Origin: Phycisphaerae bacterium
GTDB lineage: Bacteria > Planctomycetota > Phycisphaerae > UBA1845
Length of the DNA stretch: 64,000 nt
Direction of reading: 5' to 3'
NCBI GenBank assembly: GCA_029260075.1
Contig: JAJDDY010000012.1
Span: 2,176 to 66,175, forward strand
Below the pieces are notes generated by a model that had not been told where the DNA came from, searched no databases, and saw only the letters and a list, made by a program, of their open reading frames with translations. Below are positions 4,136-47,188 of this stretch, piece by piece. The translations under genes were made by a program, and so were the position numbers. The stretch's first letter is position 1. Each line of letters opens with the position of its first letter.

Positions 4136-4153
4136 CACCGGGGGAAAACCGCC

Positions 4154-4190
4154 AATGGATCACCGGCTGGAAGCCGGTGCCACACTTTTT
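4154..4190. terminator. Family-B hairpin repeat (copy B1, inverted orientation); probable bidirectional terminator
   Basis: AATGGATCACCGGCTGGAAGCCGGTGCCACAC followed by TTTTT. 8-bp stem CACCGGCT/AGCCGGTG with a 3-nt loop. Lies between the convergent stops of gyrB (4135) and the minus-strand regulator (4201). Confidence 0.6.
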
Positions 4191-4200
4191 CAACAGGCCG

Positions 4201-8827: not shown

Positions 8828-9574
8828 TCATTCGTCTACTTTCAATGCGGTCAATGCCTTTCCGATAAAGCCAAACATGTCCGAATCGATCCCGGTTTGT
8901 GTTCGTAGTTCGGGTTCGTGTTTCCACACGCGGGCTACTGACTTTTCGATGCCCATGTCGCCGCCGGAAAACGCTTGAATGAGTGCTTGCCACCGCTTAG
9001 CGAGTTCTTTGACCGTGCCGCTGGTCGGATCGGTGCCCCGGTTCATCTCGATTTTGACCTCAGCGATAAGCGTCTTCCAGTCGGCTTCACCCTGACGAAC
9101 GGCGTCGTCGCCTAATGTTTGGCGTCGTTCGGTTAGATACGCCGTCTGTTCCGGTGTGTAATATTTTTCCAGTTGTTCTATCCGCCCGATCTCCTTAATT
9201 GTTTCCATGAATTCTTCGACCGATACGCGGTCTTTCGACGCGAGCCGATCGTGGATCGCCGTCAGGCGAGTGCGAAGCTTCTGTTGTACGTCTATTCGCT
9301 CGCCCAGTCTTCCGATGTGCATTTGGATCACGTCGATCGGCGCGTATTCTGGCCGAGCCAACACCTTGCGTACTTCTTCAAGGGAAAACCCAAGTTGCCG
9401 AAGCGATTTGATCTGCTGTAGTCGAACGACGTCGTCAGCACCGTAGAGCCGATGGCCCGAGCCGGTCCGGTGCGACGGTTCGAGCAGACCAATCTCATCG
9501 TAATAGTGCAGCGATCTAATAGAGACGCCCGTACGATCGGCCAAGTCGCCTACTTTCCAGAATGTTTCTTGCAT
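8828..9574 (-). CDS. MerR-family transcriptional regulator with TipAS-like C-terminal domain
   Basis: ATG 9574 (MQETFWKVGDLADRTGVSIRSLHYYDEIGLL), a MerR HTH. A long helical C-terminal domain resembles TipAS-type ligand-binding domains. Confidence 0.88.
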   Translation of the reverse strand: MQETFWKVGDLADRTGVSIRSLHYYDEIGLLEPSHRTGSGHRLYGADDVVRLQQIKSLRQLGFSLEEVRKVLARPEYAPIDVIQMHIGRLGERIDVQQKLRTRLTAIHDRLASKDRVSVEEFMETIKEIGRIEQLEKYYTPEQTAYLTERRQTLGDDAVRQGEADWKTLIAEVKIEMNRGTDPTSGTVKELAKRWQALIQAFSGGDMGIEKSVARVWKHEPELRTQTGIDSDMFGFIGKALTALKVDE

Positions 9575-9619
9575 CGTTCGCACTCCGTCCGTCGTTCGGT
9601 GTCCAACCCAACTGACTCA

Positions 9620-9764: not shown

Positions 9765-9900
9765 CTCGCGTGTGAGAAGATGCATTAGAGGGTTTGTGAG
9801 GAACTGAGCGGCGCCCGTGAGGAAGCGGTTTTTACCCGCGAGCCCAGATCGCTTCCTCACGGGCGCGGCTCGGCAGGAGGCTTCGCGCACACGTACTAAG
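9765..9900. repeat. Family-A nested palindromic element, copy A1
   Basis: Arms GAGCGGCGCCCGTGAGGAAGCGG (9806-9828) and CGCTTCCTCACGGGCGCGGCTC (9850-9871). Outer tail ends ...GCGCACACGTACTAAG. Confidence 0.8.
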
Positions 9901-10234
9901 AGCCGGCTGCTGTTGCTGATGTGGCTGCTTGTTGTTGGGCAGCCTTCGCGGCGCCGAGTATGGAATGTGATGTGTGTCCGCCGCAAACGGCCAGCGACGT
10001 CGTGCCGTAGCCGAAGCCCTTCATCCGATTGACCCAGAGTTGTGCTCCGGTGATAGGGTCGAGGCCGTAGGTGTATCCGTTCACTGCGACGAACAGGCGG
10101 TCGCGGTCGAGCAGGAGAGAAACAAAGCCCGATCCGTCGGGCGCCATCCACTGCCAAACGATCTCACCAGTCTGCCGATCGAGGGCTGCGATGCGTTTGT
10201 TGAATCCTACGTACAGCAGTTGTTCTGCGTTCAT
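9896..10234 (-). CDS. Short PQQ-like beta-propeller repeat protein (112 aa)
   Basis: ATG 10234 preceded by GGAGAT. Motifs: TGEIVWQW and ITGAQLWV. No signal peptide. Its stop codon lies in the terminal CTAAG of repeat A1. It could be a fragment. Confidence 0.45.
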   Translation of the reverse strand: MNAEQLLYVGFNKRIAALDRQTGEIVWQWMAPDGSGFVSLLLDRDRLFVAVNGYTYGLDPITGAQLWVNRMKGFGYGTTSLAVCGGHTSHSILGAAKAAQQQAATSATAAGS

Positions 10235-10447
10235 ACCGCCTATCTCCAAATTTCGCGAACCTGCGACATCCAAGTTTTATATCGCCTCATGCCGCAGAGC
10301 ACCAGCGTGCGGCGGTTCGTCTGGTGTTTCGTGTGATCGTCGCAGGGCTCGGCGTGAACAATCACCAGGCGCGTTCTTGGGGCGATGAGAGGGCGCCTCG
10401 TGTATCGACGCGTTTTGCGCGAGCAGGAGAACAAAGAGATCGAGCGA

Positions 10448-11761
10448 ATGGATTCCGAACCCGCAAGAGTTCGCGCGGTAGTGCCACTGCTTGACTACCA
10501 ACGCGCGGATGTCGAATCCGACGCGCGGTTTCGCTGGAACTGCTGGGCGCGACAAACCGGTAAGAGCTTCACGAAATCGCTTCGTCGGATCGTTCGCGGG
10601 CTTCGTCGCGGTCGCAATCAGATATTCCTTTCAGCCAGCGAGCGTCAAAGTCGTGAGCTGATGGACAAAGCTAGGCAGCACTGTCAGGCGCTGAAGATCA
10701 CGGCGGACTATTACGACAACCGGTCGTTTCGTAACCTGAGCGTCAAGCAACTTGAAATCGTTCTTCCGGGCGGCGTGCGCATCATCGGCCTGCCCGCGAA
10801 CCCGCAGACCGCCAGAGGGTTTTCGGGCGATGTGTTGCTCGATGAGTTCGCCATGCACGCCCAGGATCAGGAAATCTGGGCGTCGGTCTTTCCCAGCATT
10901 CTGCGCGGGGACGGCGAACTCGACGTAGCCTCCACGCCGAGGGGCAGGGGTGACACCTTCTACCGCCTTGGAAGTAACGACCGATTCGTCACGAGTACGG
11001 TGACGATCGATGATGCGATCGCGGACGGTTTGAGTGTCGATACCGTGGCACTTCGCGAGGCTATGGGCGACGACACGCTCTACCGGCAGGAGTTTCTCTG
11101 CGAGTTTCTTGACGAGTCCACGGCCTTTTTGACATTCGAGCAAATCGACGCGTGCGTGGATCCGGCACTACAACTTCATCAGCGTGTGGCGGAACTTTCG
11201 CAGGACGGACGCGATCTGTTCGTCGGTGTTGACGTCGGTCGGTTGCACGATCTGACGGTCGTTTGGGTCGTGGCTCGTGATGAAGACGCGCTGCCGACCG
11301 TGGCGGTGTTCACATTGTCGCGCACGCCATTTCGCGAACAGTTCGATCTGTTGTGCGCATTGCTCGATCTTCGAAGGGTGCGCCGTGTGTGCATGGACTC
11401 CGGCGGATTGGGTATGCAGCTTGCGGAACAGGCTGTCGAGCGTTTTGGAACGCACCGAGTGGAACCCTTGACATTTACGCCGGCGCTCAAGTCTCAACTC
11501 GCTTTGGGGTTGCGGTTGGCCATCGAGTCCGCCCGGATTCGAATTCCCGATGATCGGTCGATTCGAAACGACTGGCACTCGGTCGAACGCTCGGTGACAT
11601 CGACGGGACACTTTCGGCTCGCAGCCCCTCGTCGAGAGGGCAGCCACGCGGATCGGTTTTGGGCGGCGGCGCTGGCGGTTCACGCAGCGGCTGCGGGCAC
11701 CGGCACGATCGAATCTGTATCCATCAGGCCGTTGCAGTTTGCAAGAGCGGGAACCTGGTAG
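10448..11761 (+). CDS. Phage terminase large subunit
   Basis: ATG 10448. Walker A-like WARQTGKSFT, Walker B LLDEFAMH, nuclease-domain acidic motif VGVDVGRLHD. The portal gene follows. Confidence 0.85.
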   Translation: MDSEPARVRAVVPLLDYQRADVESDARFRWNCWARQTGKSFTKSLRRIVRGLRRGRNQIFLSASERQSRELMDKARQHCQALKITADYYDNRSFRNLSVKQLEIVLPGGVRIIGLPANPQTARGFSGDVLLDEFAMHAQDQEIWASVFPSILRGDGELDVASTPRGRGDTFYRLGSNDRFVTSTVTIDDAIADGLSVDTVALREAMGDDTLYRQEFLCEFLDESTAFLTFEQIDACVDPALQLHQRVAELSQDGRDLFVGVDVGRLHDLTVVWVVARDEDALPTVAVFTLSRTPFREQFDLLCALLDLRRVRRVCMDSGGLGMQLAEQAVERFGTHRVEPLTFTPALKSQLALGLRLAIESARIRIPDDRSIRNDWHSVERSVTSTGHFRLAAPRREGSHADRFWAAALAVHAAAAGTGTIESVSIRPLQFARAGTW

Positions 11762-11862
11762 ACATTCATACGAACGCGGTGGCCCATGGTCCGGACATCG
11801 CCAACCTCGTCGTCCATCGGATCGTCGCCTGCCTTGCGGCTGGCGGTGCGGAGAACTGAACC

Positions 11863-13152
11863 ATGAAACTAACAGAACGTATTCTCAAGGCATTTCGATC
11901 CGGCGCTGGCGCACGGCCGCGACCGGGTCGTGTGGTGAATCCTCGCGCCGAAGATTCCGTTCGAGACTACGCGTCGTCGGGACTAACACCGTCGGGATTG
12001 ATCGCGATTCTTCGTGAGGCCGACGACGGGTCGCTATCAACGGCGATGCAACTCTTCGAGGAGATGGAAGAGAAGGATGCGCACCTGTTTGCGGTGGCCA
12101 ACACGCGGCGGTTGGCGCTGACCGGATCGTCGTGGGAGGTGGTGAGCGCCGCAGATTTGAATCCGCAGGCGGATCGGGCGCTGGCTGATGCGGCTGCGGC
12201 GCACGGCGCGGACGTGCTCAATTCGCTCGACGGTTTCGATGAAGCGTTGCAACACCTATCGCTGGCCACCGGTCGCAATATCGCGTTGGCGGAAATTGTC
12301 TGGGACGAGACGCCGAACGGTTTTCGGCCGGTGTCTCTGGCGCCCGTGGACTTCTCGCGCATCATGTTCGACGAGCTGGACCGTCTGCGTTTGCTTACGG
12401 CGGCGGCGCCGCGTGACGGCATCGCGCTGCCACCGCACAAGTTCGTAGTGCATACGCCGCACAGCGTGTCGGGTCATCCGCAACGTGGTGGCTTGCTGCG
12501 TGTCACGTCCATGGTCTATCTGGCTAAGAACCTGGCGCTCAAAGATTGGATGATTTTTTCCGAGGTGTTCGGCATGCCCGTGCGCATCGCGCGATACGAT
12601 CCCAGTGCGACGCCGGAGGAGAAGCGCGAATTGCTGCGCATGCTCGAATCGTTGGGCAGTAACGCCGCGGGTGTGTTCAGTCAGGCGGTCGAGCTACAAA
12701 TCATTGAAGCCAATCGCGGCACGCTCGGTCCGCCGTACGAACGATTGATTGAGTTCCTCAACCGTGAGATGAGCAAAGCCTGGTTGGGGCAGACGTTGAC
12801 CACGGACCTGGCCGGTCAGAGCGGATCGTCCGCAGCATCACAAGTCCACGAAACGGTACGGCAGGACGTGCTTGCCGACGACGTGCGCAAAGAGGGTCGC
12901 ACGTTGCGTCGCGATCTGCTCACGCCGATCACGCGCATGAAGTTCGGCGAGCGCGCGCTGGTTCCATTCTTCCGCAGAAGACTCCGTTCGCCGCTGAGTG
13001 TGAACGAACAGGTTGAGCTTATCGATGCGGCGGTCAATCGCCTGGGTCTTAGCGTTTCGGCGAATTGGGCGCATGAACTGCTTGGTTTGCCGATCGCGGC
13101 GCCCGGTCAAGCTGACGTACCTGGCGCCGCGACGAATGAACCGTCTGAATGA
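11863..13152 (+). CDS. Phage portal protein, Mu gp29-like (DUF935)
   Basis: ILREADDGSLSTAMQLFEEMEEKDAHLFAV... fits the DUF935 portal family. Position between terminase and protease agrees. Confidence 0.85.
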   Translation: MKLTERILKAFRSGAGARPRPGRVVNPRAEDSVRDYASSGLTPSGLIAILREADDGSLSTAMQLFEEMEEKDAHLFAVANTRRLALTGSSWEVVSAADLNPQADRALADAAAAHGADVLNSLDGFDEALQHLSLATGRNIALAEIVWDETPNGFRPVSLAPVDFSRIMFDELDRLRLLTAAAPRDGIALPPHKFVVHTPHSVSGHPQRGGLLRVTSMVYLAKNLALKDWMIFSEVFGMPVRIARYDPSATPEEKRELLRMLESLGSNAAGVFSQAVELQIIEANRGTLGPPYERLIEFLNREMSKAWLGQTLTTDLAGQSGSSAASQVHETVRQDVLADDVRKEGRTLRRDLLTPITRMKFGERALVPFFRRRLRSPLSVNEQVELIDAAVNRLGLSVSANWAHELLGLPIAAPGQADVPGAATNEPSE

Positions 13153-13232
13153 TCGGTTGTGGTCGCGCGTCGACGGAGCGCGTGCGACGTTGTGACGCAT
13201 GAAGCGTATGGAACACGGGCTTACTTGGCGAG

Positions 13233-14174
13233 GTGATGATGTCAGACAACACGTTTACAACGCATGAGCAAAGCAACGAAGTGACCGCATTGCGATCAGC
13301 GCCGCTTTCGGGTTCGACCATCCCCGATCGTGTGCTGGTGGCGCCTTGGGGTCAAGTGGAAAGTAGCAACGGGAGTTTCGTGGTCGACGAAGAGGCGGCG
13401 TCGCTAGCGGTGGCTGCCTTCGACGAGCAGGGCACGGATCTTCCACTGGACTACGAACATCAAACATTGGGCGGTCGGTTCTCTTCGCCGACAGGTCAGG
13501 CGCCGGCTGCGGGTTGGATCAAGCGCTTGTCGCCGGAGGGGGGCGTCGGTTTGATCGCAGAGATCGAGTGGACTGAGCAGGCCAAGCGCATGCTCGCGGC
13601 GAAGGAGTATCGGTATGTCTCGCCCGTGGCGATCATTCGCAAGTCGGATCGGAAGCTCGTGGCTATTCATTCGGTCGCACTGACCAACAAGCCGGCCATT
13701 GTGGGTATGCAGCCCATCGTCAACTGTGCGGCGATGGCTTCGGAAGAACTGTGTGCTGACTCGCTCGACCAACTGCGCTCTGAGTTGAAACTCGAACCGG
13801 AATCGGACGCGGCCGTTGTTCTGCTGGCGGCCAGTCGCCGGTTGGTGGACTTGGAGGACGCGGCGAAGCGTCGGCACATCGACGAGCGGATCACGAAGGC
13901 GATGCGTGCCGGCAAGCTCGTTGAGGCGCAGCGCGCGTGGGCGGAGGCGTTGGTGGCGCGGGAGGAGGCCCTGTTCGACGAGTGGTTTCAAACCGCCCCG
14001 GTTGTCTTGACACGCGGCGCGATCGCCAGTCCCGATGCGGCTGACACGGGTGCGGGCTACAAGCGAACGATCGCCGCAAAGGCTCGGGCCGAGTTTCACT
14101 CCAACCGGCTACTCTCAGCGCTGACGAGTGAAGAAGCATTCATATCGGATGCCCTTCGACATCAACGTAACTAG
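13233..14174 (+). CDS. Mu gpI-like head protease / scaffold protein
   Basis: VLVAPWG...GSFVVDEEAA...LPLDYEHQTL...AGWIKRL...EIEWTEQAKRMLAAKEYRYVSPV fits Mu-like prophage I protein. The C-terminal half is helical and scaffold-like. Confidence 0.8.
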   Translation: MMMSDNTFTTHEQSNEVTALRSAPLSGSTIPDRVLVAPWGQVESSNGSFVVDEEAASLAVAAFDEQGTDLPLDYEHQTLGGRFSSPTGQAPAAGWIKRLSPEGGVGLIAEIEWTEQAKRMLAAKEYRYVSPVAIIRKSDRKLVAIHSVALTNKPAIVGMQPIVNCAAMASEELCADSLDQLRSELKLEPESDAAVVLLAASRRLVDLEDAAKRRHIDERITKAMRAGKLVEAQRAWAEALVAREEALFDEWFQTAPVVLTRGAIASPDAADTGAGYKRTIAAKARAEFHSNRLLSALTSEEAFISDALRHQRN

Positions 14175-14259
14175 CGCGACCGCACGCAACGCTCGACACA
14201 TCAAACACAATTGACTCGGCTCGAACAATCACACGGTCCCATCGAAAGGATGACAAGAA

Positions 14260-15024
14260 ATGGCACTGACGGCAAATCGTGAAGTGGACCACTACATTGA
14301 TCAAGAACTGCGCAGCCTGCAGGTGGCAGCCACCGCACACGTGTACAAGGGCGGTATGGTCGGACTGTCGGCGACGGGGTATGCCCAGCCTCTGGTGGCT
14401 GGCGATCCGTTCGCGGGGATCGCGTATGAAGAAATGGACAACACGACAGGAGCGGCCGGCGATGTATCGGTTCGCGTGTATACGCTCGGCGATTTCGGTC
14501 ACGCGCTAAGCGGCGCCGCGGTCGGCGACCTCGGCCGACCGGTGTTCGCATCTGCGGAGGACGCCCTGACGTTCGCCGGATACGGCAACAGCTACGTCGG
14601 CATCGTTCAAGACGTACCCTCGGCCGGCAACATCATTCTTCGTGTGGACCCGACGCACAAGCTCATCAAAACGAGCACGCACGTCGTCGAGGACGTGGCC
14701 GCCGGTGCGGATATCTCCGCCCGGGCGATCCAATCGTTTGATCAGGCCGGATGGTTGGTGGCGGCGCGGGTAGTGAATCAGGCGACGGCGACGGCGGGCA
14801 TCGACGCGTCCAACACGTGCGTCATCGCGCTGGCCATTGACGCCGGCACGGTCGTGTCGGCGACGTTCGACAACGTCACGACGTTTCCCGCATCCAACTC
14901 GGTCAAGACGCTCGGCGCTTTGGCCAATACGAAGGCGGGCAAGGGCAACGTGCTCACGCTGGCGGTGACCAACGGAGCCACCGCCGATCCGGGACCGTTC
15001 CTCGTACAAGTCGACTACGTCTAA
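14260..15024 (+). CDS. Putative head decoration/cement protein (DUF2190-like N-terminus) with beta-rich C-terminal extension
   Basis: Lies between protease and capsid genes. The N-terminal ~110 aa (VYKGGMVGL...GIAYEEMDN...VRVYTLGDF) resemble DUF2190-type proteins. The functional call is weak. Confidence 0.55.
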   Translation: MALTANREVDHYIDQELRSLQVAATAHVYKGGMVGLSATGYAQPLVAGDPFAGIAYEEMDNTTGAAGDVSVRVYTLGDFGHALSGAAVGDLGRPVFASAEDALTFAGYGNSYVGIVQDVPSAGNIILRVDPTHKLIKTSTHVVEDVAAGADISARAIQSFDQAGWLVAARVVNQATATAGIDASNTCVIALAIDAGTVVSATFDNVTTFPASNSVKTLGALANTKAGKGNVLTLAVTNGATADPGPFLVQVDYV

Positions 15025-15111
15025 CAATCTCGTCGACGACTTCTGCGCCCATTCTGGGTCGGACCGCAGCGATGCGGTGGCATTTCGAAATCTGAACAGG
15101 GAGTTTCAGCA

Positions 15112-16035
15112 ATGGCTGTGATCAATACCGGCCTCCTGATGAAGGGGCTACGTAGCGAGTTTTTCAATCGCTTCGACATTACGAACACACACTTCGGGGA
15201 TCTCTCGACCCGAATTGAATCCAATTCGGACAGCGAAACGTACAAGTGGCTCGGGTCCATTCCGCGGATGCGCGAATGGGGTACCGGTCGCATCGCCCGG
15301 GGCATACGCACCGAATCGTACTCGGTGGAAAACCTCAAATACGAGTCCACGATCGAGGTCGACCGAGACGAAATCGCCGACGACAAGACGGGGCAGATAC
15401 GCATCCGTGTCGCGGAAATGGCCGAGCGTGCGGCCACGCACAAGGACTTCCTGATCTCGCAGTTGTTGATCAATGGCGAGACCACCGGCTTCAACAGCTT
15501 TGATGGCGTGTCGTTCTTCAACGACAGCCACGTCTCGGGTAGCTCGGGTGTACAGGACAACAATCTCACGTCCCCGGCGGTCGACCCGAACAACCCTACG
15601 ACGGCGGAGTTCAAGGGGGCTTTGGGCGATGCTATCGGGACCATGCTCGGATTTCACGACGATCAGGGCGACCCCATGTCGATTTCCGCGACCGACCTGG
15701 TCTGTGTCGTACCGACCACGATGTTCGTGGAGGCGTCCGAAGCCGTGAACGCCACGATCGTCAACAGCACGACCAACGCGCTACAGGGCGCCGCTCGTGT
15801 GATCGCTTTCCCGTGGTTGTCGGATCAGAGCAAGTGGTATCTGCTCAAAACCGACGGCGTCGTTCGGCCGTTTATTTTCCAGGATCGCGAGCCGGTCGAG
15901 TTTACGGCGCTTACGGAAGACAGTGATGAAGGTTTCCGGCGCGAGAAGTTCATGTACGGCGTTCGAGCGCGGTATCGACTGACGTACGGCTACTGGCAGT
16001 TCGCGGTGCGCATGAACTTCACGTTGCCGACGTAG
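15112..16035 (+). CDS. Major capsid protein, Mu gpT-like
   Basis: ETYKWLGSIPRMREWGTGRIA...YSVENLKYESTIEVDRDEIADDKTGQI...FDGVSFFNDSH matches the gpT major-head pattern. Confidence 0.88.
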   Translation: MAVINTGLLMKGLRSEFFNRFDITNTHFGDLSTRIESNSDSETYKWLGSIPRMREWGTGRIARGIRTESYSVENLKYESTIEVDRDEIADDKTGQIRIRVAEMAERAATHKDFLISQLLINGETTGFNSFDGVSFFNDSHVSGSSGVQDNNLTSPAVDPNNPTTAEFKGALGDAIGTMLGFHDDQGDPMSISATDLVCVVPTTMFVEASEAVNATIVNSTTNALQGAARVIAFPWLSDQSKWYLLKTDGVVRPFIFQDREPVEFTALTEDSDEGFRREKFMYGVRARYRLTYGYWQFAVRMNFTLPT

Positions 16036-16096
16036 TGCCATTTTATTGGCAGTTTATTGATCCACGCAACGGTTCAAACAGCGGAGTCTCGTCGTC

Positions 16097-16540
16097 ATGG
16101 CCTACACTACGAACGCAGATATCGAAGAGCGACTCTCCACCGCAGCCTACATTCAACTCACCGACGATGACGGTGACGGCATCGCAGATGTGGGTGTTGT
16201 GGACGAAGCCCGGTTGGCGGCGGAGGGAGAAGTCAACAGCTTCCTTGCCCGTCGATACGGCGTGCCGATTGATGTGACGGCTCATGCCGACTTGGCCGAC
16301 GTGTTGGCGTCGATTTCGCTGGACCTGGTCGAGTACCGCTTGCGATCGCGTAGACCGCCGGCGCCGGGCGACGCTGTCCGGCGCCACGGCCACGCGATCG
16401 ACTGGTTGGGGCGCGTGGCCGATGGTCGGATCGACCTTCCGTCGGCCACGCTCGTGGCAAGCGGTACGGCTCGTAGCCCGATCGGCCTGGTGGGCGGCGA
16501 GGATCGCGTGCTGACGCATGACGAACTTGCGGACCATTAG
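16097..16540 (+). CDS. Head-tail adaptor, Mu gp36-like (DUF1320)
   Basis: MAYTTNADIEERLS...DEARLAAEGEVNSFLARRYGVPIDV fits the DUF1320 pattern. It lies immediately after the capsid gene. Confidence 0.75.
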   Translation: MAYTTNADIEERLSTAAYIQLTDDDGDGIADVGVVDEARLAAEGEVNSFLARRYGVPIDVTAHADLADVLASISLDLVEYRLRSRRPPAPGDAVRRHGHAIDWLGRVADGRIDLPSATLVASGTARSPIGLVGGEDRVLTHDELADH

Positions 16541-16603
16541 TGACGTGAGGCCAAGACCCGACTGTTGCTGTAACTGAGCCCGCAGATTGAATGTGAACCC
16601 AAG

Positions 16604-17086
16604 ATGCCCACTGCCGACCGAACCACTACTAAGGCCACCATCGACGCACTGGTCACGGCGCTGCGTGCCAACGTGGTGGCCGACCCCCCAACGGCCGGCA
16701 AGCCGTTTCGCCGTGTGGGTGTGGCTGAATCGCTCGCGACCTCTTGGGCCCGTCCGTTCTTGGCCATTGTCCCGGAGCGAACCAAGCTCATCGGCTCTGT
16801 CGACAACGACAAGATCGTCGAGGTAGCGCTGACGTTGCGCATCGCGGTCGACGCGACCGCGAACGACCCGCACGGCGCCGTGCTCGACATGATCGGCGCG
16901 CTCGACGACTACTTCGACAGCATCATCGACACCGGTGTCATCGGCGGCGCCGAAGGGTTTGACCTGCGAGATTGGACTTTCGAGTTTCCGCGCACCACGG
17001 CAGGGGCGCGCGTCGTATCCGCGAAGTCCACGGTGTCATTCGTCGTCAAGGTGGAACGAAACCAAAACAGGGTTCCTGCCGTGTAG
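16604..17086 (+). CDS. Hypothetical virion protein (possible head-closure / tail-terminator-like)
   Basis: 160-aa ORF in the structural gene order. The N-terminus (ATIDALVTALRANV) is vaguely like DUF3168-type proteins. No firm motif. Confidence 0.6.
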   Translation: MPTADRTTTKATIDALVTALRANVVADPPTAGKPFRRVGVAESLATSWARPFLAIVPERTKLIGSVDNDKIVEVALTLRIAVDATANDPHGAVLDMIGALDDYFDSIIDTGVIGGAEGFDLRDWTFEFPRTTAGARVVSAKSTVSFVVKVERNQNRVPAV

Positions 17087-17542
17087 TTGGAACTGATGAT
17101 CTGGATCTTGGCAACACGGGGCGCGTCGACAAGACTTCGCGCCACGCCGTTCACGGAAACGGCCATCGAAGGCGTCCACAGCGTCGTCTATCAACCCGGG
17201 ATCGCGCCAGTCCCAGCGAGTGGGGAAGACATCGCTGCCGGACTGCTCGGAACATTTTCGCGCGGTGTTCATCGTATCTCCGGTGTCGTTTTTTCGTACG
17301 ACGGACTGGCTGCGGAGACGCTGTTTGCGATTGAGAATCCAATCGACTTGCTCATCCGCTACCGGGCCAACGGTCAAAAGCGACTGCGCACATTGTCCGA
17401 CGTGCTTTTCGTCGGAGACTCGCGCGTGACGATACCCGAACTGAACACCGGGCTGCCGGAGTCGATCGGCGTGCCTTTCCGCGTGCAAATCCCGGAGGGC
17501 AACAAGATTGCCAACCACGTGACCGATGCGGTGGAGGTATAG
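17087..17542 (+). CDS. Hypothetical virion protein
   Basis: ORF starts directly after the previous stop (TTG 17087 or ATG 17096). No recognisable motif. Confidence 0.55.
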   Translation: MELMIWILATRGASTRLRATPFTETAIEGVHSVVYQPGIAPVPASGEDIAAGLLGTFSRGVHRISGVVFSYDGLAAETLFAIENPIDLLIRYRANGQKRLRTLSDVLFVGDSRVTIPELNTGLPESIGVPFRVQIPEGNKIANHVTDAVEV

Positions 17543-17544
17543 CG

Positions 17545-17991
17545 ATGGCCATCAACCGACTAAGTGCGCTTCGCGCCGTGACGAAGGAGTTGAACCTCCA
17601 GAATCTCGAACTGGAGGAACTTCGCGCCCGGCAGATGCGGGCCGTCCTGATCAAGACCGCTTCGGGAACCGGCGACATAGAACATGTGTTCAAGCTGGAC
17701 CGCAAGTTCCGCGTAGTGTTTGTGCGATGTCACTTTGTTGGCACTTTGTCTACGGCTGAATTCGCCCTATCCGTGGATTCGGCCAGCGGTTCGGCGTTTG
17801 ATACGAAGTTGTTTTCCATCGCCCAGGCCGGTGGCGGCCAGGATGTACACTTGCGGACGGACGACGGCGGTACCTCCGAACCCTCGCCTTGGACGTTTCA
17901 AACCGGCGACCAAATCCGCATTGACTGGACCAACCCGGACAGCGGCAACATTACCTGGGGGCTTGAAGTAGGATTCGTACTGGCCTCCTGA
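17545..17991 (+). CDS. Hypothetical virion protein
   Basis: ATG 17545 preceded by GGTGGAGG, 2 nt after the previous stop. Beta-rich C-terminus. Confidence 0.65.
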   Translation: MAINRLSALRAVTKELNLQNLELEELRARQMRAVLIKTASGTGDIEHVFKLDRKFRVVFVRCHFVGTLSTAEFALSVDSASGSAFDTKLFSIAQAGGGQDVHLRTDDGGTSEPSPWTFQTGDQIRIDWTNPDSGNITWGLEVGFVLAS

Positions 17992-18004
17992 CGGAACGCT
18001 TGAT

Positions 18005-18826
18005 ATGCCGAACACGAATCGAACCAGCACGCACAACCGTGCCGGCCGCGCCGACCAGGACAGCTATCACCCCGGCGCGCCGACCGACTGGTCGAACCCC
18101 GAACCAAGGACCGTGCAACAGGGCTTGGACGATCTCGCCGCGCAGTCTCACCCGGTGAACGACACCACGCCGCTGGTTCAAGATCCTGTCGACAGCGCAC
18201 GACGAATGCGGATCGACGTGGGGGCGGTTGCGACGGGCACCGTGCGCGTGCTCACGATTCCCGATCGCGATGTCGACCTTTCGTCCGGCGGTACGTTTGC
18301 CGAATTCACGCACGCATCAACACACGAATCCGGTGGCGCGGATGCGATCAACCACGACAACTTGACGGGCTTCGTCGCCGGCGAGCATGTAGACCACTCG
18401 TTAGTATCCGTACTTGCGGGGACCGGACTAAGCGGTGGCGGAACGATCGACTCCGATCGAACGCTCAACGTCAGCACGGCGTTGCGCACACGGACCGCCA
18501 TATTCTACATCCAAGATCCCAAGAGCACGGACGTTATTCCGATCCTCTTCACCAAGGACGCGATGACCATCTCCAAGGTCTACGCCGTGACAAGCTCAGC
18601 CACCGTAACGTTCAATCTCTACGAGAGAACCCTCGCGAATACGTTTACGGTTTCCGGCGAGTCCAAAATCATGACGTCGGATCTGGTGGCTGATACGAAT
18701 TCAGAAACCACAACGATCTTCATAGACGCAGCGATCGCTGCCGAGCGTGGCATCATATTCAAGGCCGTGTCCACAACGGGAAGCCCCGGGCAACTTATGG
18801 TGGCGGTCAGCTACACGGTTGACTAA
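18005..18826 (+). CDS. Putative tail-fibre / receptor-binding-like protein
   Basis: ATG 18005. The His-rich segment HASTHESGGADAINHDNLTGFVAGEHVDHS resembles the H-x-H...D-I...L-x-G segments of many phage minor tail/fibre proteins (from memory). Beta-rich C-terminus. Confidence 0.55.
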   Translation: MPNTNRTSTHNRAGRADQDSYHPGAPTDWSNPEPRTVQQGLDDLAAQSHPVNDTTPLVQDPVDSARRMRIDVGAVATGTVRVLTIPDRDVDLSSGGTFAEFTHASTHESGGADAINHDNLTGFVAGEHVDHSLVSVLAGTGLSGGGTIDSDRTLNVSTALRTRTAIFYIQDPKSTDVIPILFTKDAMTISKVYAVTSSATVTFNLYERTLANTFTVSGESKIMTSDLVADTNSETTTIFIDAAIAAERGIIFKAVSTTGSPGQLMVAVSYTVD

Positions 18827-18963
18827 GAACGTGTGTGGGTAGATGTATTCGAGGGCTTGCGATGAACCGAGCCGTGCCCGTAACGAAGCGGTTGTTCGCC
18901 TCGCACATTGACCGCTTCCTTACGGGCGCGGCTCGGAAAGAGACTGCTTGCACACGTTCTAAG
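18823..18963. repeat. Family-A nested palindromic element, copy A2 (full length, inside the virion cluster)
   Basis: CTAAGAACGTGTG...GAACCGAGCCGTGCCCGTAACGAAGCGG-loop-CCGCTTCCTTACGGGCGCGGCTCGG...CACACGTTCTAAG. It overlaps the TAA stop of the upstream CDS. Confidence 0.85.
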
Positions 18964-19063
18964 ATGTTCGCGCGGAACGGGATGGCCCGGCATGTTGGCG
19001 GCGTGGCCAAAGGCCGGAACGCATCGCCGGCAATTGTTGGGAAGTTTTGTAAGGCATTCTGCG

Positions 19064-20293
19064 ATGGCAATATCACTCATCGATTTCGATGGCGCGAATT
19101 CCGGGAGCATCCACACGCTTGGTACGGGTCAAGCAGGCGTGGTCGCTGTGGGCACACCTGCGCCGTTGAGTTCGAAGGAAACGTTCGTCTACAGGATCGA
19201 CAACTTAGGCAGCCCGTCAAAACTGGTCGCCGATATGTTCGCACCAGATACGGAGTGGATTACGGTCGGGTTCATCGCCCGATGGAATAGCCTTGGCACC
19301 TTGAGCGCCACGCCGAAATTCTTTCAAGCCCACGACGCTTTGCCGCATTTCTACCTGAAGTGGGACAAGGACAACGGCGACGTCAAGCTCTACAACGCTT
19401 CCAACGCCTTGCAGGATACGGCAAGCGACATCATCTCTGTCGACACGTGGTATCGGTTCGAGATGAAGTGGAAGCAATCAAGCGCCGGTCAGTTTCAACT
19501 CCGCGTCAACGGCGACTTGGCCATCGACGTCGCCTCGATGAATCTGAAGAATTCGGGAACATCCAATGTGACGCCCGTGTGGACAAACGGATCCAATCAA
19601 GCAGAGATCGTCAACGTCTACATCGGGTCGTACTACGTATATACTGACGACGGCACAAGTATTGACACGAACACGACATTTCTTGGTGACTACACCGTCC
19701 TCGGGTCGTTTGAATCGGGAACTCAGGGCGCCACGGGCGACTTCTCCGGTGAAGACACGTTGGGTTCATCGACAACGCTCGCGATGTGTCAGGACACGCC
19801 GTCGGACGACACCGACAGCGCGAAGATGGTCATTTCATCCGAGGGGCAGAGGAAAACCGGTGTGGCCACGGACCACGCGACGGCGACCATCGCCGGACCA
19901 CGCAACAACCCGGACGTAGACGACTTGATCAAAGGGGCCAAGTGGACCTGGCGACACACGGGGCCGAACGCACAGTTCGGGCAGTCCATGAAATTCTTCG
20001 GCCGCTACGGACGGCAATCGAACGTCAACAAAAACACACCCAACGTCGTCGAGACACCTGCCTTCGGCGCGACCATGTCCACGACGAAAGCCAACCTGTC
20101 CATCGTCGAGGTTGCTTCCGGTTCATCCGGTAACGTCCCCGACAAAACGGAATGGTTTCAGCAGGGGTTTCGTATCGACAATCAGTTCACGTCACAGAAG
20201 ACCGGCGAGTGCGTGGATATGTGGAATCAAACCCTACACAAAGAACGTCGACAGGTCGTCGTCGGCGGAAAAACGCAAAGGTTGCCGTCGTGA
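19064..20293 (+). CDS. Hypothetical virion protein with LamG/concanavalin-like N-terminal domain
   Basis: ATG 19064 (MAISLIDFDG...). The listed ORF start at 18908 lies inside repeat A2. WYRFEMKWKQSSAGQFQLRVNGDL is typical of a lectin-like jelly roll. Last gene of the cluster. Confidence 0.65.
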   Translation: MAISLIDFDGANSGSIHTLGTGQAGVVAVGTPAPLSSKETFVYRIDNLGSPSKLVADMFAPDTEWITVGFIARWNSLGTLSATPKFFQAHDALPHFYLKWDKDNGDVKLYNASNALQDTASDIISVDTWYRFEMKWKQSSAGQFQLRVNGDLAIDVASMNLKNSGTSNVTPVWTNGSNQAEIVNVYIGSYYVYTDDGTSIDTNTTFLGDYTVLGSFESGTQGATGDFSGEDTLGSSTTLAMCQDTPSDDTDSAKMVISSEGQRKTGVATDHATATIAGPRNNPDVDDLIKGAKWTWRHTGPNAQFGQSMKFFGRYGRQSNVNKNTPNVVETPAFGATMSTTKANLSIVEVASGSSGNVPDKTEWFQQGFRIDNQFTSQKTGECVDMWNQTLHKERRQVVVGGKTQRLPS

Positions 20294-20371
20294 CATTGAC
20301 GCTCATCGTCGATGCGCTGAACAGATACGTGCGTCGGCACGAGAGCCTTTCAATGCAGCCCCACTGAACGA

Positions 20372-20409
20372 GTGTGGTACCCGCTTCCAGCCGGTGATCC
20401 ATCGGCGAT
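20372..20409. repeat. Family-B hairpin repeat, copy B3 (terminator-like)
   Basis: GTGTGGTACCCGCTTCCAGCCGGTGATCCATCGGCGA, 79 nt after the last virion-cluster stop. Confidence 0.7.
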
Positions 20410-20435
20410 CGACACCAACGTTCTCGGCAACAGCG

Positions 20436-23286: not shown

Positions 23287-23635
23287 CGTATCCTCCTTGA
23301 TCACAAGTTTTGCAGTTCGAACGCTACCGGTCCTCCGCAGCACGGCTCAACACTTGGAGGCGGCCAGTTGCGACACCGAATGCGCTCTGGAATCGTCCCA
23401 CAGCCGCCGCGCCCGTCGATTCCGGATGGAGCGTGCCCCGGACCGAAGCGAATTCCATCGGCGGACGTTGCGTGTATATGGTACGCATGAAGATCATGCA
23501 ACCCCCTGGCGATTCATCCGTGTTTCGGAACTTGCCATGGCCACTTCGTCTCACGCCCACGAGGCTGGTGACGCACGCTTTTCCGCTTTTCCGGTAGTCC
23601 TGGCCGTACGCGGCGTGGTCAAGCGTCCGGGACCG

Positions 23636-23651
23636 TGTTTCACGTGAAACA
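23636..23651. promoter_or_regulatory. parS centromere-like site 1 (perfect consensus)
   Basis: TGTTTCACGTGAAACA, an exact 16-bp palindromic parS consensus, 350 bp upstream of the parB start. Confidence 0.9.
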
Positions 23652-23797
23652 GTATCGCCAGTAATGACGAGATCCGACGACCTGCTATCGAAAAGCGGCG
23701 AGTCGGTAGACAGATCGTCCTGCGCCCCCAGATGGTATCGGCAAGGCGGTCCGTCGGAAGAGGTCGCCGAGATTGGGGTGCGTGACAGTTGCGGCGC

Positions 23798-23935
23798 GTA
23801 CCCCATTCCTCGCCGTAGGCGAAGGGTGGGGCACGGATAGTTCACGCGAAGAGCAGTAGTGCTCCACGTCTTTGCGTCACGAAGAACTCTTGCTTCCATG
23901 TGGTGCGTTACACGGTGACGCGAAGAATGGGGCAT
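23798..23935. repeat. Family-C composite repeat, copy C1
   Basis: GTACCCCATTCCTCGCCGTAGGCGAAGGGTGGGGCACGG...CACGGTGACGCGAAGAATGGGGCAT. The ends are inverted complements. Colinear with copy C3. Confidence 0.75.
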
Positions 23936-24175
23936 CCATATCGGTCTTGGCCCCGCCGAATCTGCTTGAACCCCAGAAATTGCGGCCTGCGACACCCGCC
24001 ATGCCGCGTGAACCTGACCAACGATGTCACGATTGATGACCGCGCCCCACGACGTCGTCCGCTGGAATCCGAGATGGAGGGTCCTTTGCTCGGCCGCTGT
24101 CCTAGATCGCGGTAGCTCAGAGGCAGCAAGAGCATGCGTTGGACGACGCATCCTATGATCGCTTCCGGATGCGCT

Positions 24176-24409: not shown

Positions 24410-24424
24410 TAGTCTGTCGAGGAA

Positions 24425-24460
24425 GTGTGGTACCGGCTGCCATCCGGTGATCTATTCGCG
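24425..24460. repeat. Family-B hairpin repeat, copy B4 (diverged)
   Basis: GTGTGGTACCGGCTGCCATCCGGTGATCTATTCGCG. Confidence 0.6.
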
Positions 24461-24994
24461 ATTTCGTCCTCTTGGTGGGAACGCAGCACTTTATCACGTG
24501 CGAGTTCTCGTTGACGGGCTTGAATACCCGTATTGTTCAACATCCTGCTTGCGGTATTGCCAACGTCTGCGGCAACGCAATCTGTAGGCTTGCAATAATA
24601 CGCATGACGCGTGCATAAGACTTCGGTGCAATCTTGCTTGCGGCGTATGGGGTATCGGACGCAAGCGCGCTGGCGTAACCCGGAACGTCGCACCCATAGT
24701 TCCGATCGTTGTGCAATAACCGACGTGTACAATCGCCGAACACAAAGTGCCATAGGTGTGGCACTTTTGGGAACGCTCTCGGTAATCGCTCCTTGATCAC
24801 GGTAACAGGATCGGTCTCGCCGTACGCGAAGGAATCGTTTGCCGCTCGAAGTGTGTGATTGCAGTGGAGCCAACGATTCGTGCGCGAGCGAACGTACAAC
24901 GTTTGCCATTAGCAAGGAATCCACGGCATGCACGTTGTGGCGCATATTGCTTGTATTTCACGGTAAAACAGCCGTAGCGCGACGTTGCAGATGC

Positions 24995-27971: not shown

Positions 27972-28922
27972 ATGGCTGGTGGCGAAGTCGGTACTGAGTT
28001 TTGGTTGCATGAGTACATCACACCGTGGGATTTCTACGCCCATGGGATTACCAAGGTGCTCGAGTATCGCCGTACGAAGTTTCAGGAAATGTACATCGTA
28101 GAGACCGGCGCGTATGGGCAGGCGCTCGTGCTGGACGGCAAGTGGCAGTCGTGCTCGGGTGATGAGTTTCTCTATCACGAGCCGCTGGTGCATCCGGCGA
28201 TGCTGTTGCACGGGTCGCCGAAGCGCGTGCTTATTCTTGGCGGTGGCGAAGGGGCTACGGCGCGTGAGGTGTTGCGTTGGAAGAGCGTCGAGCAGGTGAC
28301 CATGGTCGACATCGACGGCGAGGTGGTCGACGCCTGTCGATGCCATCTTGCGAGCATGCACCAAAACGCCTTCGACGACCCACGCCTCGAAGTCGTGATC
28401 GATGACGCTATTAACGTGCTCGACCGGGCTAATACAACCTGGGACGTGATCGTTTCCGACTTGTCCGATCCCATCGAAGATGGGCCGTCGTTCAAACTCT
28501 TCACGAAAGAGTATTTCGAAAAAGCCAAGCGCGTTCTTGCGCCTGACGGTGCATTCGTGCTACAGGCTGGACCAGTCGCGCCAGCCGAGCTTCGTCTTCA
28601 CGCTCGCCTCGTTCATACGATGCGCCAGGTGTTTGAGCACGTTCAGTCGTACACATCGTACGTGCCCACGTATGCATCACCGTGGGGCTTCGCACTCGCG
28701 CGTTCAACACCGATCGACACGCGACCGGACCCGGAAACGATTGACGGTCAGCTTTCCGAGCAAACCACCGGCGGGCTGAAAATGTTCGACGGGACCACAC
28801 TTCTAGGCATGCTGCAGCTACCGGCCCACATCCGCCGGGCCATCGACGACGAAACCGTCGTGTACTCGCTCGATCACCCGCCGAAGTTTTTCGGCAAGGG
28901 TACGCTGGGTGCGTCTGCCTAA
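27972..28922 (+). CDS. speE: Spermidine synthase (polyamine aminopropyltransferase)
   Basis: YHEPLVHP...VLILGGGEGATAREVLRW...VTMVDIDGEVV...DVIVSDLSDP, a spermidine-synthase signature. Adjacent to speH. Confidence 0.92.
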   Translation: MAGGEVGTEFWLHEYITPWDFYAHGITKVLEYRRTKFQEMYIVETGAYGQALVLDGKWQSCSGDEFLYHEPLVHPAMLLHGSPKRVLILGGGEGATAREVLRWKSVEQVTMVDIDGEVVDACRCHLASMHQNAFDDPRLEVVIDDAINVLDRANTTWDVIVSDLSDPIEDGPSFKLFTKEYFEKAKRVLAPDGAFVLQAGPVAPAELRLHARLVHTMRQVFEHVQSYTSYVPTYASPWGFALARSTPIDTRPDPETIDGQLSEQTTGGLKMFDGTTLLGMLQLPAHIRRAIDDETVVYSLDHPPKFFGKGTLGASA

Positions 28923-29193
28923 CGGTCGCGACGATAGCGGCGGGTAGTTGGCCCGTCGTGCTCCTGTCACATCCTTCGACCATGACGCCAAAGGTGATCG
29001 GACGTTTGTTTCTTGCAAGCCGTCCAATTCCAGAGAAACTATGACTAAGGCGTTTTAATGTCCGCTCGGATATTAAAATTTTTGATTGTTTATTGTAAAA
29101 CTAACTTGCGATTTGAGTAATGGAGTCATATATTGCAATGTGACGTTCGATACTCAAAACAATCCAGGTTTCTCGGGCTAGGGATGGTGTGCA

Positions 29194-30348: not shown

Positions 30349-30378
30349 CCGCTCGGATGTTGCGGATGGCGCGTGGAC

Positions 30379-33174: not shown

Positions 33175-33303
33175 CTAAGAACGTGTATCAGAAGTCTCTC
33201 TTAGAGCCGCGCCCGTAAGGAAGCGGTGCGGTTTCGTGGTCGACAACCGCTTCCTTACGGTCTCGGCTCGGTTTGAAGCAACCCTTCCTAAACACGCTCT
33301 TCG
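33175..33303. repeat. Family-A nested palindromic element, copy A3
   Basis: CTAAGAACGTGTA...GAGCCGCGCCCGTAAGGAAGCGG-loop-CCGCTTCCTTACGGTCTCGGCTCGG...AACACGCTCTT. Confidence 0.8.
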
Positions 33304-40095: not shown

Positions 40096-40118
40096 TGCCC
40101 GGTAGGATCAGGGAAGGG

Positions 40119-41984: not shown

Positions 41985-42010
41985 CGGTATTGTTGTTGCG
42001 AAGCCGTCCG

Positions 42011-47173: not shown

Positions 47174-47188
47174 CCGCCGATTGAACAA

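Follow-up and report, generated by a model that had tools for sequence, protein, structure and literature searches.

A Mu-type structural gene cluster conserved in Phycisphaerae, a candidate for a domesticated, gene transfer agent-like particle

The gene transfer agent (GTA) of Rhodobacter capsulatus (RcGTA, g1-g15, Alphaproteobacteria) is encoded by a chromosomal, structural-only cluster ordered from head to tail, which contains no replication or lysogeny genes, is inherited in a large clade under purifying selection and leaves lysis and regulation to genes outside the cluster. Known GTAs such as RcGTA hold accessory genes at other loci. PBSX-type defective prophages, BaGTA and VSH-1 are host-maintained, phage-derived particles that package host DNA, with complete tails and lysis modules encoded in or near their clusters. 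The capsid-forming PICIs (cf-PICIs) belong to the mobile satellites and possess integrase, regulators, primase/replication genes and small terminase. Their own genes cover head, packaging and head-tail connector but not a full tail, and outside tails are needed for completion. Here we describe a cluster in a window of 64,000 nucleotides from a Phycisphaerae bacterium (contig JAJDDY010000012.1), which shares with the RcGTA cluster its chromosomal, structural-only, head-to-tail layout, inheritance in a large clade under purifying selection and the lack of lysis and regulatory genes. Its origin is independent: it has Portal_Mu, Mu-like_Pro, Mu-like_gpT and gp36, whereas g3-g5 of RcGTA are of the HK97 type. 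Unlike RcGTA, it has no small terminase (g1), tape measure (g12), distal tail, hub or megatron genes, and its tail module varies by sub-clade. It has no sequence relationship to PBSX-type prophages, BaGTA or VSH-1, with which it would share maintenance by the host and the packaging of host DNA. Like the cf-PICIs, it encodes head, packaging and connector without a full tail, but it has none of their mobility, regulatory, replication and small terminase genes and is fixed and conserved across species.

Eleven ORFs, all on the + strand, span positions 10385/10448 to 20293 of the window (Table 1). As the initial annotation had described, the intergenic gaps are short (2-101 nt) apart from a single gap of 237 nt at 18827-19063. 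Pfam and PHROGs upheld the six identities that it had assigned (terminase, DUF935 portal, gpI, a 254-aa decoration-like protein, gpT and gp36), and its terminase start coincides with the conserved N-terminus and is also the start called in the closest relative; the frame itself is open from 10385/10400. The LamG-like nature that it proposed for the last ORF, g11, found no support, since Pfam, PHROG and PDB sequence searches returned no match. The flanking genes are ordinary chromosomal genes, with dnaN, gyrB, a sigma-54 two-component pair, SLOG and MerR/TipAS upstream and ParB, BamB-like, SpeD/SpeE and AspRS downstream. The claims of a host-like composition and of no tRNA boundary were borne out: the cluster has the G+C and codon-position G+C of its host, and a search of the whole window found zero tRNA genes.

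Repeat A, a unit of about 135 nt, occurs in at least nine copies in the window. Two repeat families had been reported in or beside the cluster; the copy in the 237-nt gap and the copy after the last stop were found again, and a further copy of repeat A just 5' of the cluster had been missed. Two Logan contigs are identical to the window, and one of them (L001) ends inside both of these repeat A copies, at 9846 and 18939. In the closest relative the repeat between g10 and g11 is missing, and g11, with a conserved N-terminus, starts 12 nt after g10. No g11 homologue was found in 80 genome loci. The gene is a lineage-specific add-on and, judged by position only, may be co-transcribed with the cluster.

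Table 1. Features of the cluster and adjoining repeats in window coordinates; dN/dS was determined against the closest relative.
Feature	Position	Strand	Basis or remark	dN/dS
Large terminase (TerL)	10448..11761	+	Terminase_6N, Terminase_6C; phrog_5909, phrog_2	0.054
Mu-type portal (DUF935), without MuF domain	11863..13152	+	Portal_Mu at 2e-87	0.062
gpI-type head maturation protease/scaffold	13233..14174	+	Mu-like_Pro at 2e-50; phrog_328	0.088
Cement/decoration protein, long form, 254 aa	14260..15024	+	phrog_1731 'virion structural protein', 1e-18, residues 1-126	0.10
Major capsid protein, gpT type	15112..16035	+	Mu-like_gpT at 3e-56	0.067
Head-tail adaptor (Mu gp36/DUF1320)	16097..16540	+	Phage_Mu_Gp36 at 8e-20; phrog_195 head-tail adaptor	
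g07, 160 aa, neck position	16604..17086	+	conserved; no family match	
g08, predicted tail-tube-fold protein	17096..17542	+	AlphaFold2 pLDDT 90, pTM 0.82; Foldseek	0.106
g09	17545..17991	+	30-residue N-terminal helix and jelly-roll-like beta-sandwich (AlphaFold2 pLDDT 68.5, moderate confidence)	0.097
g10, mosaic fibre-like protein	18005..18826	+	variable tenth position of the cluster	0.155
g11, 409 aa	19064..20293	+	lineage-specific	
Repeat A copy (dispersed hairpin)	18830..18964	.	between g10 and g11; repeat families D1/D2/D4	
Repeat A copy	9767..9901	.	just 5' of the cluster	
Repeat B copy (dispersed)	20365..20426	.	72 nt past the g11 stop; family D3, inverted pairs I8, I9, I12	

The domain matches show that the predicted products comprise all parts to build and fill a capsid, namely TerL, portal, protease/scaffold, cement and capsid protein. 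In TerL, the Walker A motif (RQxGKSF), the Walker B motif (LDEF) and the Asp motifs of the nuclease do not vary among 60 sequences, and 57 protease sequences conserve the motifs DyEHQTL and HSxALTNKPAI. More than 120 portal homologues were found, with identities of 65-93% and nearly all 424 aa long; the capsid proteins are 60-82% identical across species loci. The cement protein occurs in relatives in two sizes, 136 aa or about 251 aa. In the long form, the cement domain is followed by about 120 further aa at the C-terminus, and a short-form orthologue weakly matches Phage_cement and Phage_cement_2.

The initial annotation had reported that tube genes are missing. At the level of the fold this is wrong, as g08, one of its four unknowns, is confidently predicted by modelling to adopt a tail-tube/Hcp fold. 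Foldseek comparison of the model with the PDB detected tail tube proteins, Hcp and a neck chain of RcGTA (6toa_G) with E values of 1e-5 to 1e-3; in BFVD, 124 hits at E<=1e-3 include siphovirus 'tail tube/major tail protein' entries with TM up to 0.67. The protein is the best conserved of the three small proteins g07-g09, and is represented by only 20 representative clusters in 1.84 billion proteins. Pfam, PHROG and PDB sequence searches gave no match for g07; we infer from its position alone that it is a stopper or terminator. Alignments of 18 orthologues each showed identities to the window protein of 41-61% for g07 and 43-64% for g09. Foldseek matches of g09 are weak (KHP40 trimeric cement protein, TM <0.4). 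For g10 only 20 homologues were found, most of them covering 11-28% of its length at 40-77% identity and two containing Peptidase_S74; the modules at its N-terminus, centre and C-terminus are shuffled between loci. The tenth position of 86 type-A loci is taken by a 216-aa family in 33 and by g10-like proteins in about 17. With a tube-fold protein and a mosaic fibre-like protein among its products, the cluster cannot be called tail-free.

The other absences reported earlier stand: transposase, adjacent small terminase, MuF, tape measure, baseplate and lysis genes, as well as integrase, repressor and replication genes, were not found in the cluster when window and flanks were searched. The order TerL-portal-protease-cement-capsid-gp36 is present in about 57 of 80 species-representative Phycisphaerae/Planctomycetota loci with differing host flanks, and the trio g07-g08-g09 in 23-24 of them and on 80 further metagenome contigs. 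Across these 80 genome loci and 80 contigs no transposase, conserved small terminase, MuF, tape measure, baseplate or lysis gene was detected. No conserved ORF precedes TerL in 47 loci. Past position 10, parB is the sole recurrent gene in the 86 loci having g09 plus downstream sequence (6 loci in the downstream clustering; it adjoins the cluster in L005, L022 and L025).

Of the two alternatives left by the initial annotation, one was a particle system that is maintained, the other an unusually clean prophage remnant; the latter would be a Mu-like prophage in neutral decay. Loss of the modules that a functional Mu-like phage requires, and the host repeats inserted inside and beside the cluster, would fit a remnant. 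However, the ORFs have stayed intact across dozens of species, with 51/51 capsid, 56/57 protease and 59/61 TerL orthologues intact and full-length orthologues of g07 (18/18), g08 (16/17) and g09 (17/17; together 51/52). The dN/dS values of the cluster are 0.05-0.16 at dS 0.5-0.7, with g10 at the top; they are comparable with or below that of the adjacent host SLOG gene (0.11). Apart from two isolated ORFs, the 80 species-representative loci with their flanks of +-10 kb contain no other Mu-phage gene family, and no relative carries a complete prophage. Frameshifted orthologues, dN/dS near 1 and complete Mu-like prophages in relatives had been named beforehand as signs of decay, and the findings contradict decay on all three points. 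Because the ORFs are intact, the catalytic motifs invariant, dN/dS low and the portals one clade separate from viruses, the cluster is not a decaying prophage, a reading that is hardly tenable any more; the tests favour maintenance.

The head module is homologous to that of the Mu-like transposable phages (above all the siphoviral Pseudomonas B3/D3112/JBD30 group) and of L083, the nearest virus-like IMG/VR contig, with the same order of TerL, DUF935 portal, gpI, cement, gpT and gp36. In contrast to these, the cluster lacks MuA/MuB, repressor, Mor/C, lysis genes, the DUF3486 small terminase, MuF (fused to the portal in L083), a gp37-like protein, sheath and the long-tail set. An NJ tree of the portals groups the Planctomycetota loci in a single clade. 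Among IMG/VR portals the nearest is 49% identical and all others at most 41%; among the capsids of the INPHARED GenBank phage set the best match reaches 36%, versus at least 60% within the clade. Pairwise distances of capsid and gp36 correlate weakly with those of TerL and portal (r 0.2-0.5); saturation and short length could explain this, as could some exchange. Three observations speak for vertical inheritance: the portal tree is monophyletic, the MAG labels agree roughly, and close relatives share local synteny.

A satellite or defective transposable phage moving between genomes would account for the flanking genes that differ in most genomes, as the chromosomal position is not conserved class-wide, and for the exchanged tail module. 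A few carriers are also MAGs labelled Chloroflexota, Alphaproteobacteria or Chromatiales, but these labels are limited to contigs of 2-9 kb or to a bin whose portal is nested among Phycisphaerae and are more simply explained by mis-binning. Such horizontal mobility is very unlikely, given that transposase, integrase and end repeats are absent, the composition is host-like, each listed genome has one locus among the top 80 loci, and close relatives share the locus; the closest one has SLOG upstream and g11 downstream.

The tail raises two further explanations. Heads filled with DNA and equipped with a neck could gain the tails of infecting or resident phages, like cf-PICIs, or interfere defensively with phages; adaptor, g07 and g08 would then form the neck, with g08 as a terminator-like docking ring. 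Tape measure, hub and baseplate are missing from all 86 type-A loci, and the tube fold is common to tail terminators, so that g08 could be such a ring. Furthermore, hhalign identifies g07 as a homologue of the ORF that follows the adaptor in L170 (probability 95%, E 1.7e-8), a contig that also holds the single IMG/VR homologue of g09 (49% identity); L170/L171 has the order adaptor, g07-like, g08-like, g09-like and tail-fibre gene next to a different head and a primase, and is satellite-like in its predicted gene content. Against tail piracy, the window and its relatives have no integrase, primase/replication gene, small terminase or excision signal, g08 finds its top matches in BFVD among major tube proteins and not among terminators, and the fibre-like gene after the trio suggests an adsorption device of the particle itself. 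Deeper-branching relatives moreover have a seemingly complete short-tail module, which the g07-g10 module appears to have replaced. We therefore regard dependence on foreign tails as unlikely.

Alternatively, the cluster could be one part of a long-tailed, GTA-like system whose tape measure, distal tail, hub, lysis and regulatory genes are conserved elsewhere in the genome. The siphovirus major-tail fold of g08 and the accessory loci of known GTAs agree with this, and one sub-clade (L051, L054, L057, L071 and L076) retains only TerL and portal at the locus, showing that the cluster can be split. In L083, however, the tube gene after the neck genes is followed by no tape-measure-sized ORF in the approximately 2 kb of locus beyond it, and a split would thus have to be old and clean. 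Such a system seems improbable.

Taken together, we consider it probable that this is a host-owned, domesticated, GTA-like cluster for particle formation, derived from a Mu-type tailed phage, inherited within Phycisphaerae/Planctomycetota and kept under purifying selection. Domestication with maintained function is very likely, and it is ancient; a role in DNA transfer, drawn from the gene content, is put forward tentatively. In the proposed pathway, the host would express the operon, procapsids would assemble at the portal and be matured by the gpI protease, and TerL would fill the heads with any available DNA, that is, host DNA, because no sequence-specific small subunit is encoded beside it. 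The missing small terminase is compatible with non-specific packaging, without proving it. Adaptor, g07 and g08 would form a very short tube or stub that closes off the portal, and g10-type fibres, in the lineage of the window together with g11, would bind cells, so that released particles would behave as a gene transfer agent. Any further tail parts, release and regulation would have to be encoded elsewhere or otherwise supplied. We know of no established assembly route for a tube-fold protein without tape measure, distal tail protein or hub; therefore the particle may be incomplete, and the rest of the tail, lysis genes and regulators could lie elsewhere in the genome. In agreement with the initial annotation, which knew of no such system in this lineage, the searched literature contained no description of such a particle for Planctomycetota. 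A host-owned, GTA-like particle of this kind would be new for the phylum.

The cluster consists of eleven ORFs on the + strand, extending from 10385/10448 to 20293 with gaps of 2-101 nt and one gap of 237 nt. Searches with Pfam and PHROGs identified a Mu-type head module (TerL, DUF935 portal, gpI, gpT and gp36) and thereby confirmed the calls of the initial annotation for these genes and for the decoration-like protein. It had also described eleven co-oriented ORFs without MuA/MuB, repressor, small terminase, MuF or lysis genes, which held true for cluster and flanks. The MuA, MuB and repressor/Ner early region was not found, the window flanks being dnaN to MerR on one side and g11 to ParB on the other, and neither the DUF3486 small terminase, MuF/gp30 and gp37 nor the tail and lysis modules of Mu were detected at the locus. 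The cluster contains neither regulator nor lysis genes. Thus, it shares the head module with Mu-like transposable prophages but not their transposase/early region and tail/lysis modules. For g07 to g11 no significant Pfam match was obtained, and the sole PHROG match was a marginal one of g10 to phrog_21962 ('tail protein', E 0.002). A tailocin was ruled out because the cluster has a capsid, and an encapsulin-like compartment because portal and terminase are conserved.

Features of the cluster and its surroundings. Coordinates refer to the window unless a relative's locus is named; dN/dS is from one pairwise comparison with the closest relative.
Feature	Position	Strand	Length	Similarity or remark	Full-length in species loci	dN/dS
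Large terminase (TerL)		+		Pfam Terminase_6N/6C, PHROGs	59/61	0.054
Mu-type portal (DUF935)		+		Pfam 2e-87		0.062
gpI protease/scaffold		+		Pfam 2e-50	56/57	0.088
Virion protein (cement)		+	254 aa	N-terminal 126 residues phrog_1731; short-form orthologues match Phage_cement weakly		0.10
gpT capsid		+		Pfam 3e-56	51/51	0.067
gp36/DUF1320 adaptor		+		Pfam 8e-20	49/51	
g07	16604-17086	+	160 aa	ORF 7	18/18	
g08	17096-17542	+	148 aa	ORF 8	16/17	0.106
g09	17545-17991	+	148 aa	ORF 9	17/17	0.097
g10	18005-18826	+	273 aa	ORF 10		0.155
g11	19064-20293	+	409 aa	last ORF; real start 19064		
Adjacent host SLOG gene						0.112
MerR/TipAS gene	8828-9583	-				
Small ORF divergent from TerL	9896-10234	-	111 aa	single PQQ_2/BamB-like repeat, 6.5e-7		0.076
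Rejected small terminase candidate	9974-10336	+				
First seven cluster genes, gaps	11762-16603			61-101 nt each		
Hairpin and T-run	16036-16051			directly after capsid stop		
ORF upstream of parB	23324-24151	-		internal 23776-23946 resembles 39835-40005		
Region of low G+C	28000-31000			down to 0.53-0.55, ~0.59 elsewhere		
Fic/DOC gene	29194-30348					
Repeat A	9767-9901 (just upstream of cluster), 18830-18964 (between g10 and g11), 33175-33294, 40092-40226, 42000-42083, 48645-48803, 50272-50412, 51873-51995, 56743-56866		~135 nt			
Repeat B	4136-4199, 20365-20426, 24420-24479, 47184-47243, 57747-57815, 59231-59298		~60 nt			
Type B module	L039: 14754-21170			after the same head genes; similar in L018, L024, L040, L041, L046, L048, L049, L059, L062, L067		

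Among the matches listed, more than 120 portal homologues showed 65-93% identity, nearly all of 424 aa and on contigs of up to 698 kb, and the named ones were all labelled Planctomycetota or Phycisphaerae. A scan using one genome per species yielded 239 genomes with a relative, and the best 80 of these 239 were analyzed. They have portals that are 50-73% identical, carry one locus each and are almost all Phycisphaerae/Planctomycetota MAGs; since most of the relatives' genomes are MAGs, their labels are uncertain. ORFs in the relatives were assigned by HMM labelling of six-frame ORFs, which replaced greedy calling by length/GC3 with its antisense mis-calls in G+C-rich DNA. About 57 of the 80 loci share the window's order TerL-portal-protease-cement-capsid-gp36, most of the others being cut by contig ends, and capsid identity across species loci is 60-82%. 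The flanks are host genes that vary between genomes. The locus is shared in the closest relatives, where SLOG lies upstream in contig L167 and g11 directly downstream in contig L169; parB adjoins the cluster in the loci L005, L022 and L025, and a ParB family recurs downstream in six loci. MAGs labelled Chloroflexota, Alphaproteobacteria and Chromatiales (L015, L041, L052) have portals that nest among the Phycisphaerae ones, and their odd labels are probably due to mis-binning rather than transfer. In five loci of one portal sub-clade (L051, L054, L057, L071, L076) TerL and portal are the only cluster genes; no protease, capsid or adaptor gene lies within 10 kb, which indicates that these loci have either a split cluster or one that has lost part of its genes. 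Insertions between portal and protease were seen in L011 (about 4 kb, 11260-15304) and L081 (3.3 kb, 11278-14549).

Viral relatives are distant. Among 2.9 million IMG/VR contigs the top portal match was 49% identical (L083) and all others were at or below 41%, and in the INPHARED GenBank phage set no capsid was more than 36% identical. L083, which encodes a Phage_tube_2 protein and a portal fused to MuF, has the appearance of a genuine Mu-like siphophage; the window portal is without MuF. In a simple NJ tree of portals the Planctomycetota loci form one clade, to which L083 is sister.

The initial annotation had left a choice between a maintained particle system and an unusually clean prophage remnant. 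Complete Mu-like prophages in relatives, frameshifted orthologues or a dN/dS near 1 would point to the latter, and each was contradicted. When ORFs of 80 Mu-like IMG/VR loci were compared with the sequence up to 10 kb on either side of the 80 genome loci, no Mu-phage families were found except for two isolated ORFs. The capsid gene, for example, is intact in all 51 species loci scored, and dN/dS of the cluster genes compared, estimated once from the pair formed with the closest relative (three ENA contigs, dS 0.5-0.7), lies between 0.054 and 0.155. In addition, Walker A, Walker B and the nuclease aspartates of TerL and the His and Ser of the protease are kept in 57-60 sequences. A decaying remnant is therefore poorly supported. 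Clade-wide conservation, intact ORFs and purifying selection speak for maintenance by the host, as in gene transfer agents (GTAs).

Two architectures were found downstream of gp36. In type A, present in the window and its closest relatives, gp36 is followed by g07, g08, g09 and a fibre-like protein. In type B, present in deeper-branching loci, it is followed by a 279-aa protein whose N-terminus weakly matches Mu gp37, a beta-rich protein (about 720 aa) without resemblance to a tape measure, several small proteins and a beta-helix protein; this module may be a short, podovirus-like tail apparatus belonging to a related domesticated cluster. Comparison by hhalign of g07-g10 with the type B downstream genes and with neck, sheath and tube families of 53 Mu-like IMG/VR loci gave no relationship above 50% probability. 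Type A is nested inside the type-B-bearing diversity in the portal tree, which suggests that one tail module took the place of another after domestication. The g07-g09 module was seen outside Planctomycetota chromosomes in one place only, the 23-kb contig IMGVR_UViG_3300037264_003279 (L170/L171), which is virus- or satellite-like and encodes a primase, its own TerL, a non-Mu portal, an HK97-type capsid and a 409-aa adaptor. Here, the adaptor is followed by g07-like (hhalign 95%), g08-like (52%) and g09-like (49% identity) proteins and a tail fibre. With the type A order located behind a different head, g07-g09 and the fibre constitute a portable module.

The model of g08 (pLDDT 90; alignment from a representative library, 20 clusters in all among 1.84 billion proteins) matches PDB structures of tail tubes, Hcp and terminators, among them HFTV1, monocin, phage R4C, an RcGTA neck chain and the Mu tube, with E down to 1e-5, and siphovirus 'tail tube/major tail' proteins in BFVD with TM up to 0.67. 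At fold level (beta-sandwich plus flanking helix) the modelled protein falls into the tail tube protein superfamily and could be a tube, terminator or distal tail protein. Contrary to the initial annotation, the cluster is thus not tube-less. The g09 model, of moderate confidence, has a long N-terminal helix and a jelly-roll sandwich with weak structure matches. No search run gave a match for g07; PDB sequences searched with profiles of g07, g08 and g09 yielded nothing, member-wise PHROG scans of g07 and g09 found nothing recurrent, and the three concatenated as one protein query matched only P0141, a spurious ORF fusion. g10 is a mosaic: the segments from its N-terminus, centre and C-terminus are recombined from locus to locus, and a Peptidase_S74 domain forms the end of two related proteins; this fibre-like character suggests a possible role in adsorption. 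The description of g11 as LamG-like could not be upheld, as neither a match to Laminin_G or related families at E≤10 nor a notable PDB sequence match was obtained. Outside the window g11 was found only in the closest relative, where it starts 12 nt after g10; the repeat A copy between both genes in the window is therefore an insertion.

Of 86 type-A loci, 33 have a member of a family of 216-aa proteins at the tenth position and about 17 a g10-like protein. Beyond this position nothing recurs but parB, and neither a tape-measure-like gene nor a hub was detected, whereas RcGTA has both. RcGTA (g1-g15) uses an HK97-type portal, protease and capsid; the window cluster is not homologous to it, its head proteins all belonging to Mu-type Pfam families. 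A comparison of 47 loci showed no conserved ORF family upstream of TerL and hence no small terminase next to it; a + strand ORF considered for this role is not conserved, and selection acts instead on the 111-aa ORF that overlaps it on the minus strand. Because tape measure, hub, lysis genes, regulators and small terminase are absent, two variants remain serious: the remaining machinery may be encoded at other loci, or the heads may dock onto tails of other phages, as in cf-PICIs. The latter are mobile islands with integrase, primase and replication genes, regulators, small terminase and att sites, and none of these hallmarks was found here. An actively mobile element is poorly supported.

The cluster is located in an ordinary chromosomal setting close to the replication origin. 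Upstream are dnaN, gyrB, a sigma-54 response regulator with a protoglobin kinase, the SLOG protein and MerR/TipAS; downstream are an unknown 575-aa protein, ParB, a BamB-like protein, SpeD/SpeE, Fic, AspRS and more housekeeping genes. The window has no tRNA, and an Rfam scan of it gave zero matches. G+C and codon-position G+C of the cluster agree with the host values, in line with the host-like composition reported earlier, and the two host repeat families noticed in and beside it are both real. Repeat A is a dispersed, intergenic hairpin element with at least nine copies and a 25-nt inverted repeat (CCGAGCCGCGCCCGTGAGGAAGCGG plus complement) as core; it looks REP- or MITE-like, and Logan contig L001 ends within two copies. 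Repeat B (core GTGTGGCACCGGCTTCCAGCCGGTGATCCAT, no Rfam match) is dispersed as well and sits right after gene ends in both orientations. The 111-aa ORF is a real gene judging from its dN/dS against the closest relative, and it was also found upstream of TerL in L005 and L167, not in other loci. Between SLOG and this ORF, L167 is missing the MerR/TipAS gene and the upstream repeat A copy, an indel exactly at the left edge of the cluster. For a late operon of a phage, the gaps between the first seven genes are long. Directly after the capsid gene is a hairpin with T-run; overall, scans for terminators and sigma-70 consensus promoters were at chance level, and a k-mer search of the sequences preceding TerL in 43 loci for a common promoter motif yielded G+C-rich words only. 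The region of low G+C around the Fic/DOC gene may represent a small island of acquired DNA. At the place expected for parA, upstream of parB, lies an ORF that contains repeated sequence and has no Pfam match; no ParA was recognized beside ParB.

Taken together, these results show an old structural cluster of phage origin that resides in the host as a single copy, is under functional constraint and has intact packaging and maturation enzymes. GTAs package essentially random host DNA in pieces too small for the whole cluster, deliver it to recipients, and depend on host regulators and host-encoded lysis. Like them, the window contains a phage-derived structural cluster in the chromosome without replication, lysogeny or self-transfer genes. 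Judged from sequence, the most likely function of the cluster would be to make DNA-filled particles from host DNA as a GTA-like system, the particles carrying exchangeable fibres and a minimal stub of neck and tube. That no small terminase is encoded next to TerL is a hint, and the sole indirect pointer, that random host DNA might be packaged. Tentatively, and at somewhat less than even odds, we propose an independent, ancient GTA lineage, the first in Planctomycetota and the first from a Mu-type ancestor, Phycisphaerae-wide and probably beyond, with a tape-measure-free minimal tail (adaptor, g07, one tube-fold protein, g09 and fibres) and a tail module swapped after domestication.

To our knowledge, independent GTA lineages are few and none is known in Planctomycetota. 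Full-text literature searches on GTAs in Planctomycetes/Planctomycetota and on Mu-like, terminase and portal genes in Phycisphaerae returned alphaproteobacterial GTAs or unrelated work only. The cluster would be an independent domestication of a Mu-type ancestor in a new phylum and one more case of virus domestication. It would also demonstrate that tail modules can be exchanged behind a domesticated head module, and would pose the structural puzzle of how a tube-fold protein is used without a tape measure. For virome pipelines caution is indicated, since these loci are viral in appearance and, on present evidence, host genes. Planctomycetota have an unusual cell biology and few genetic tools; for the abundant environmental Phycisphaerae the cluster would suggest a route of horizontal gene transfer.
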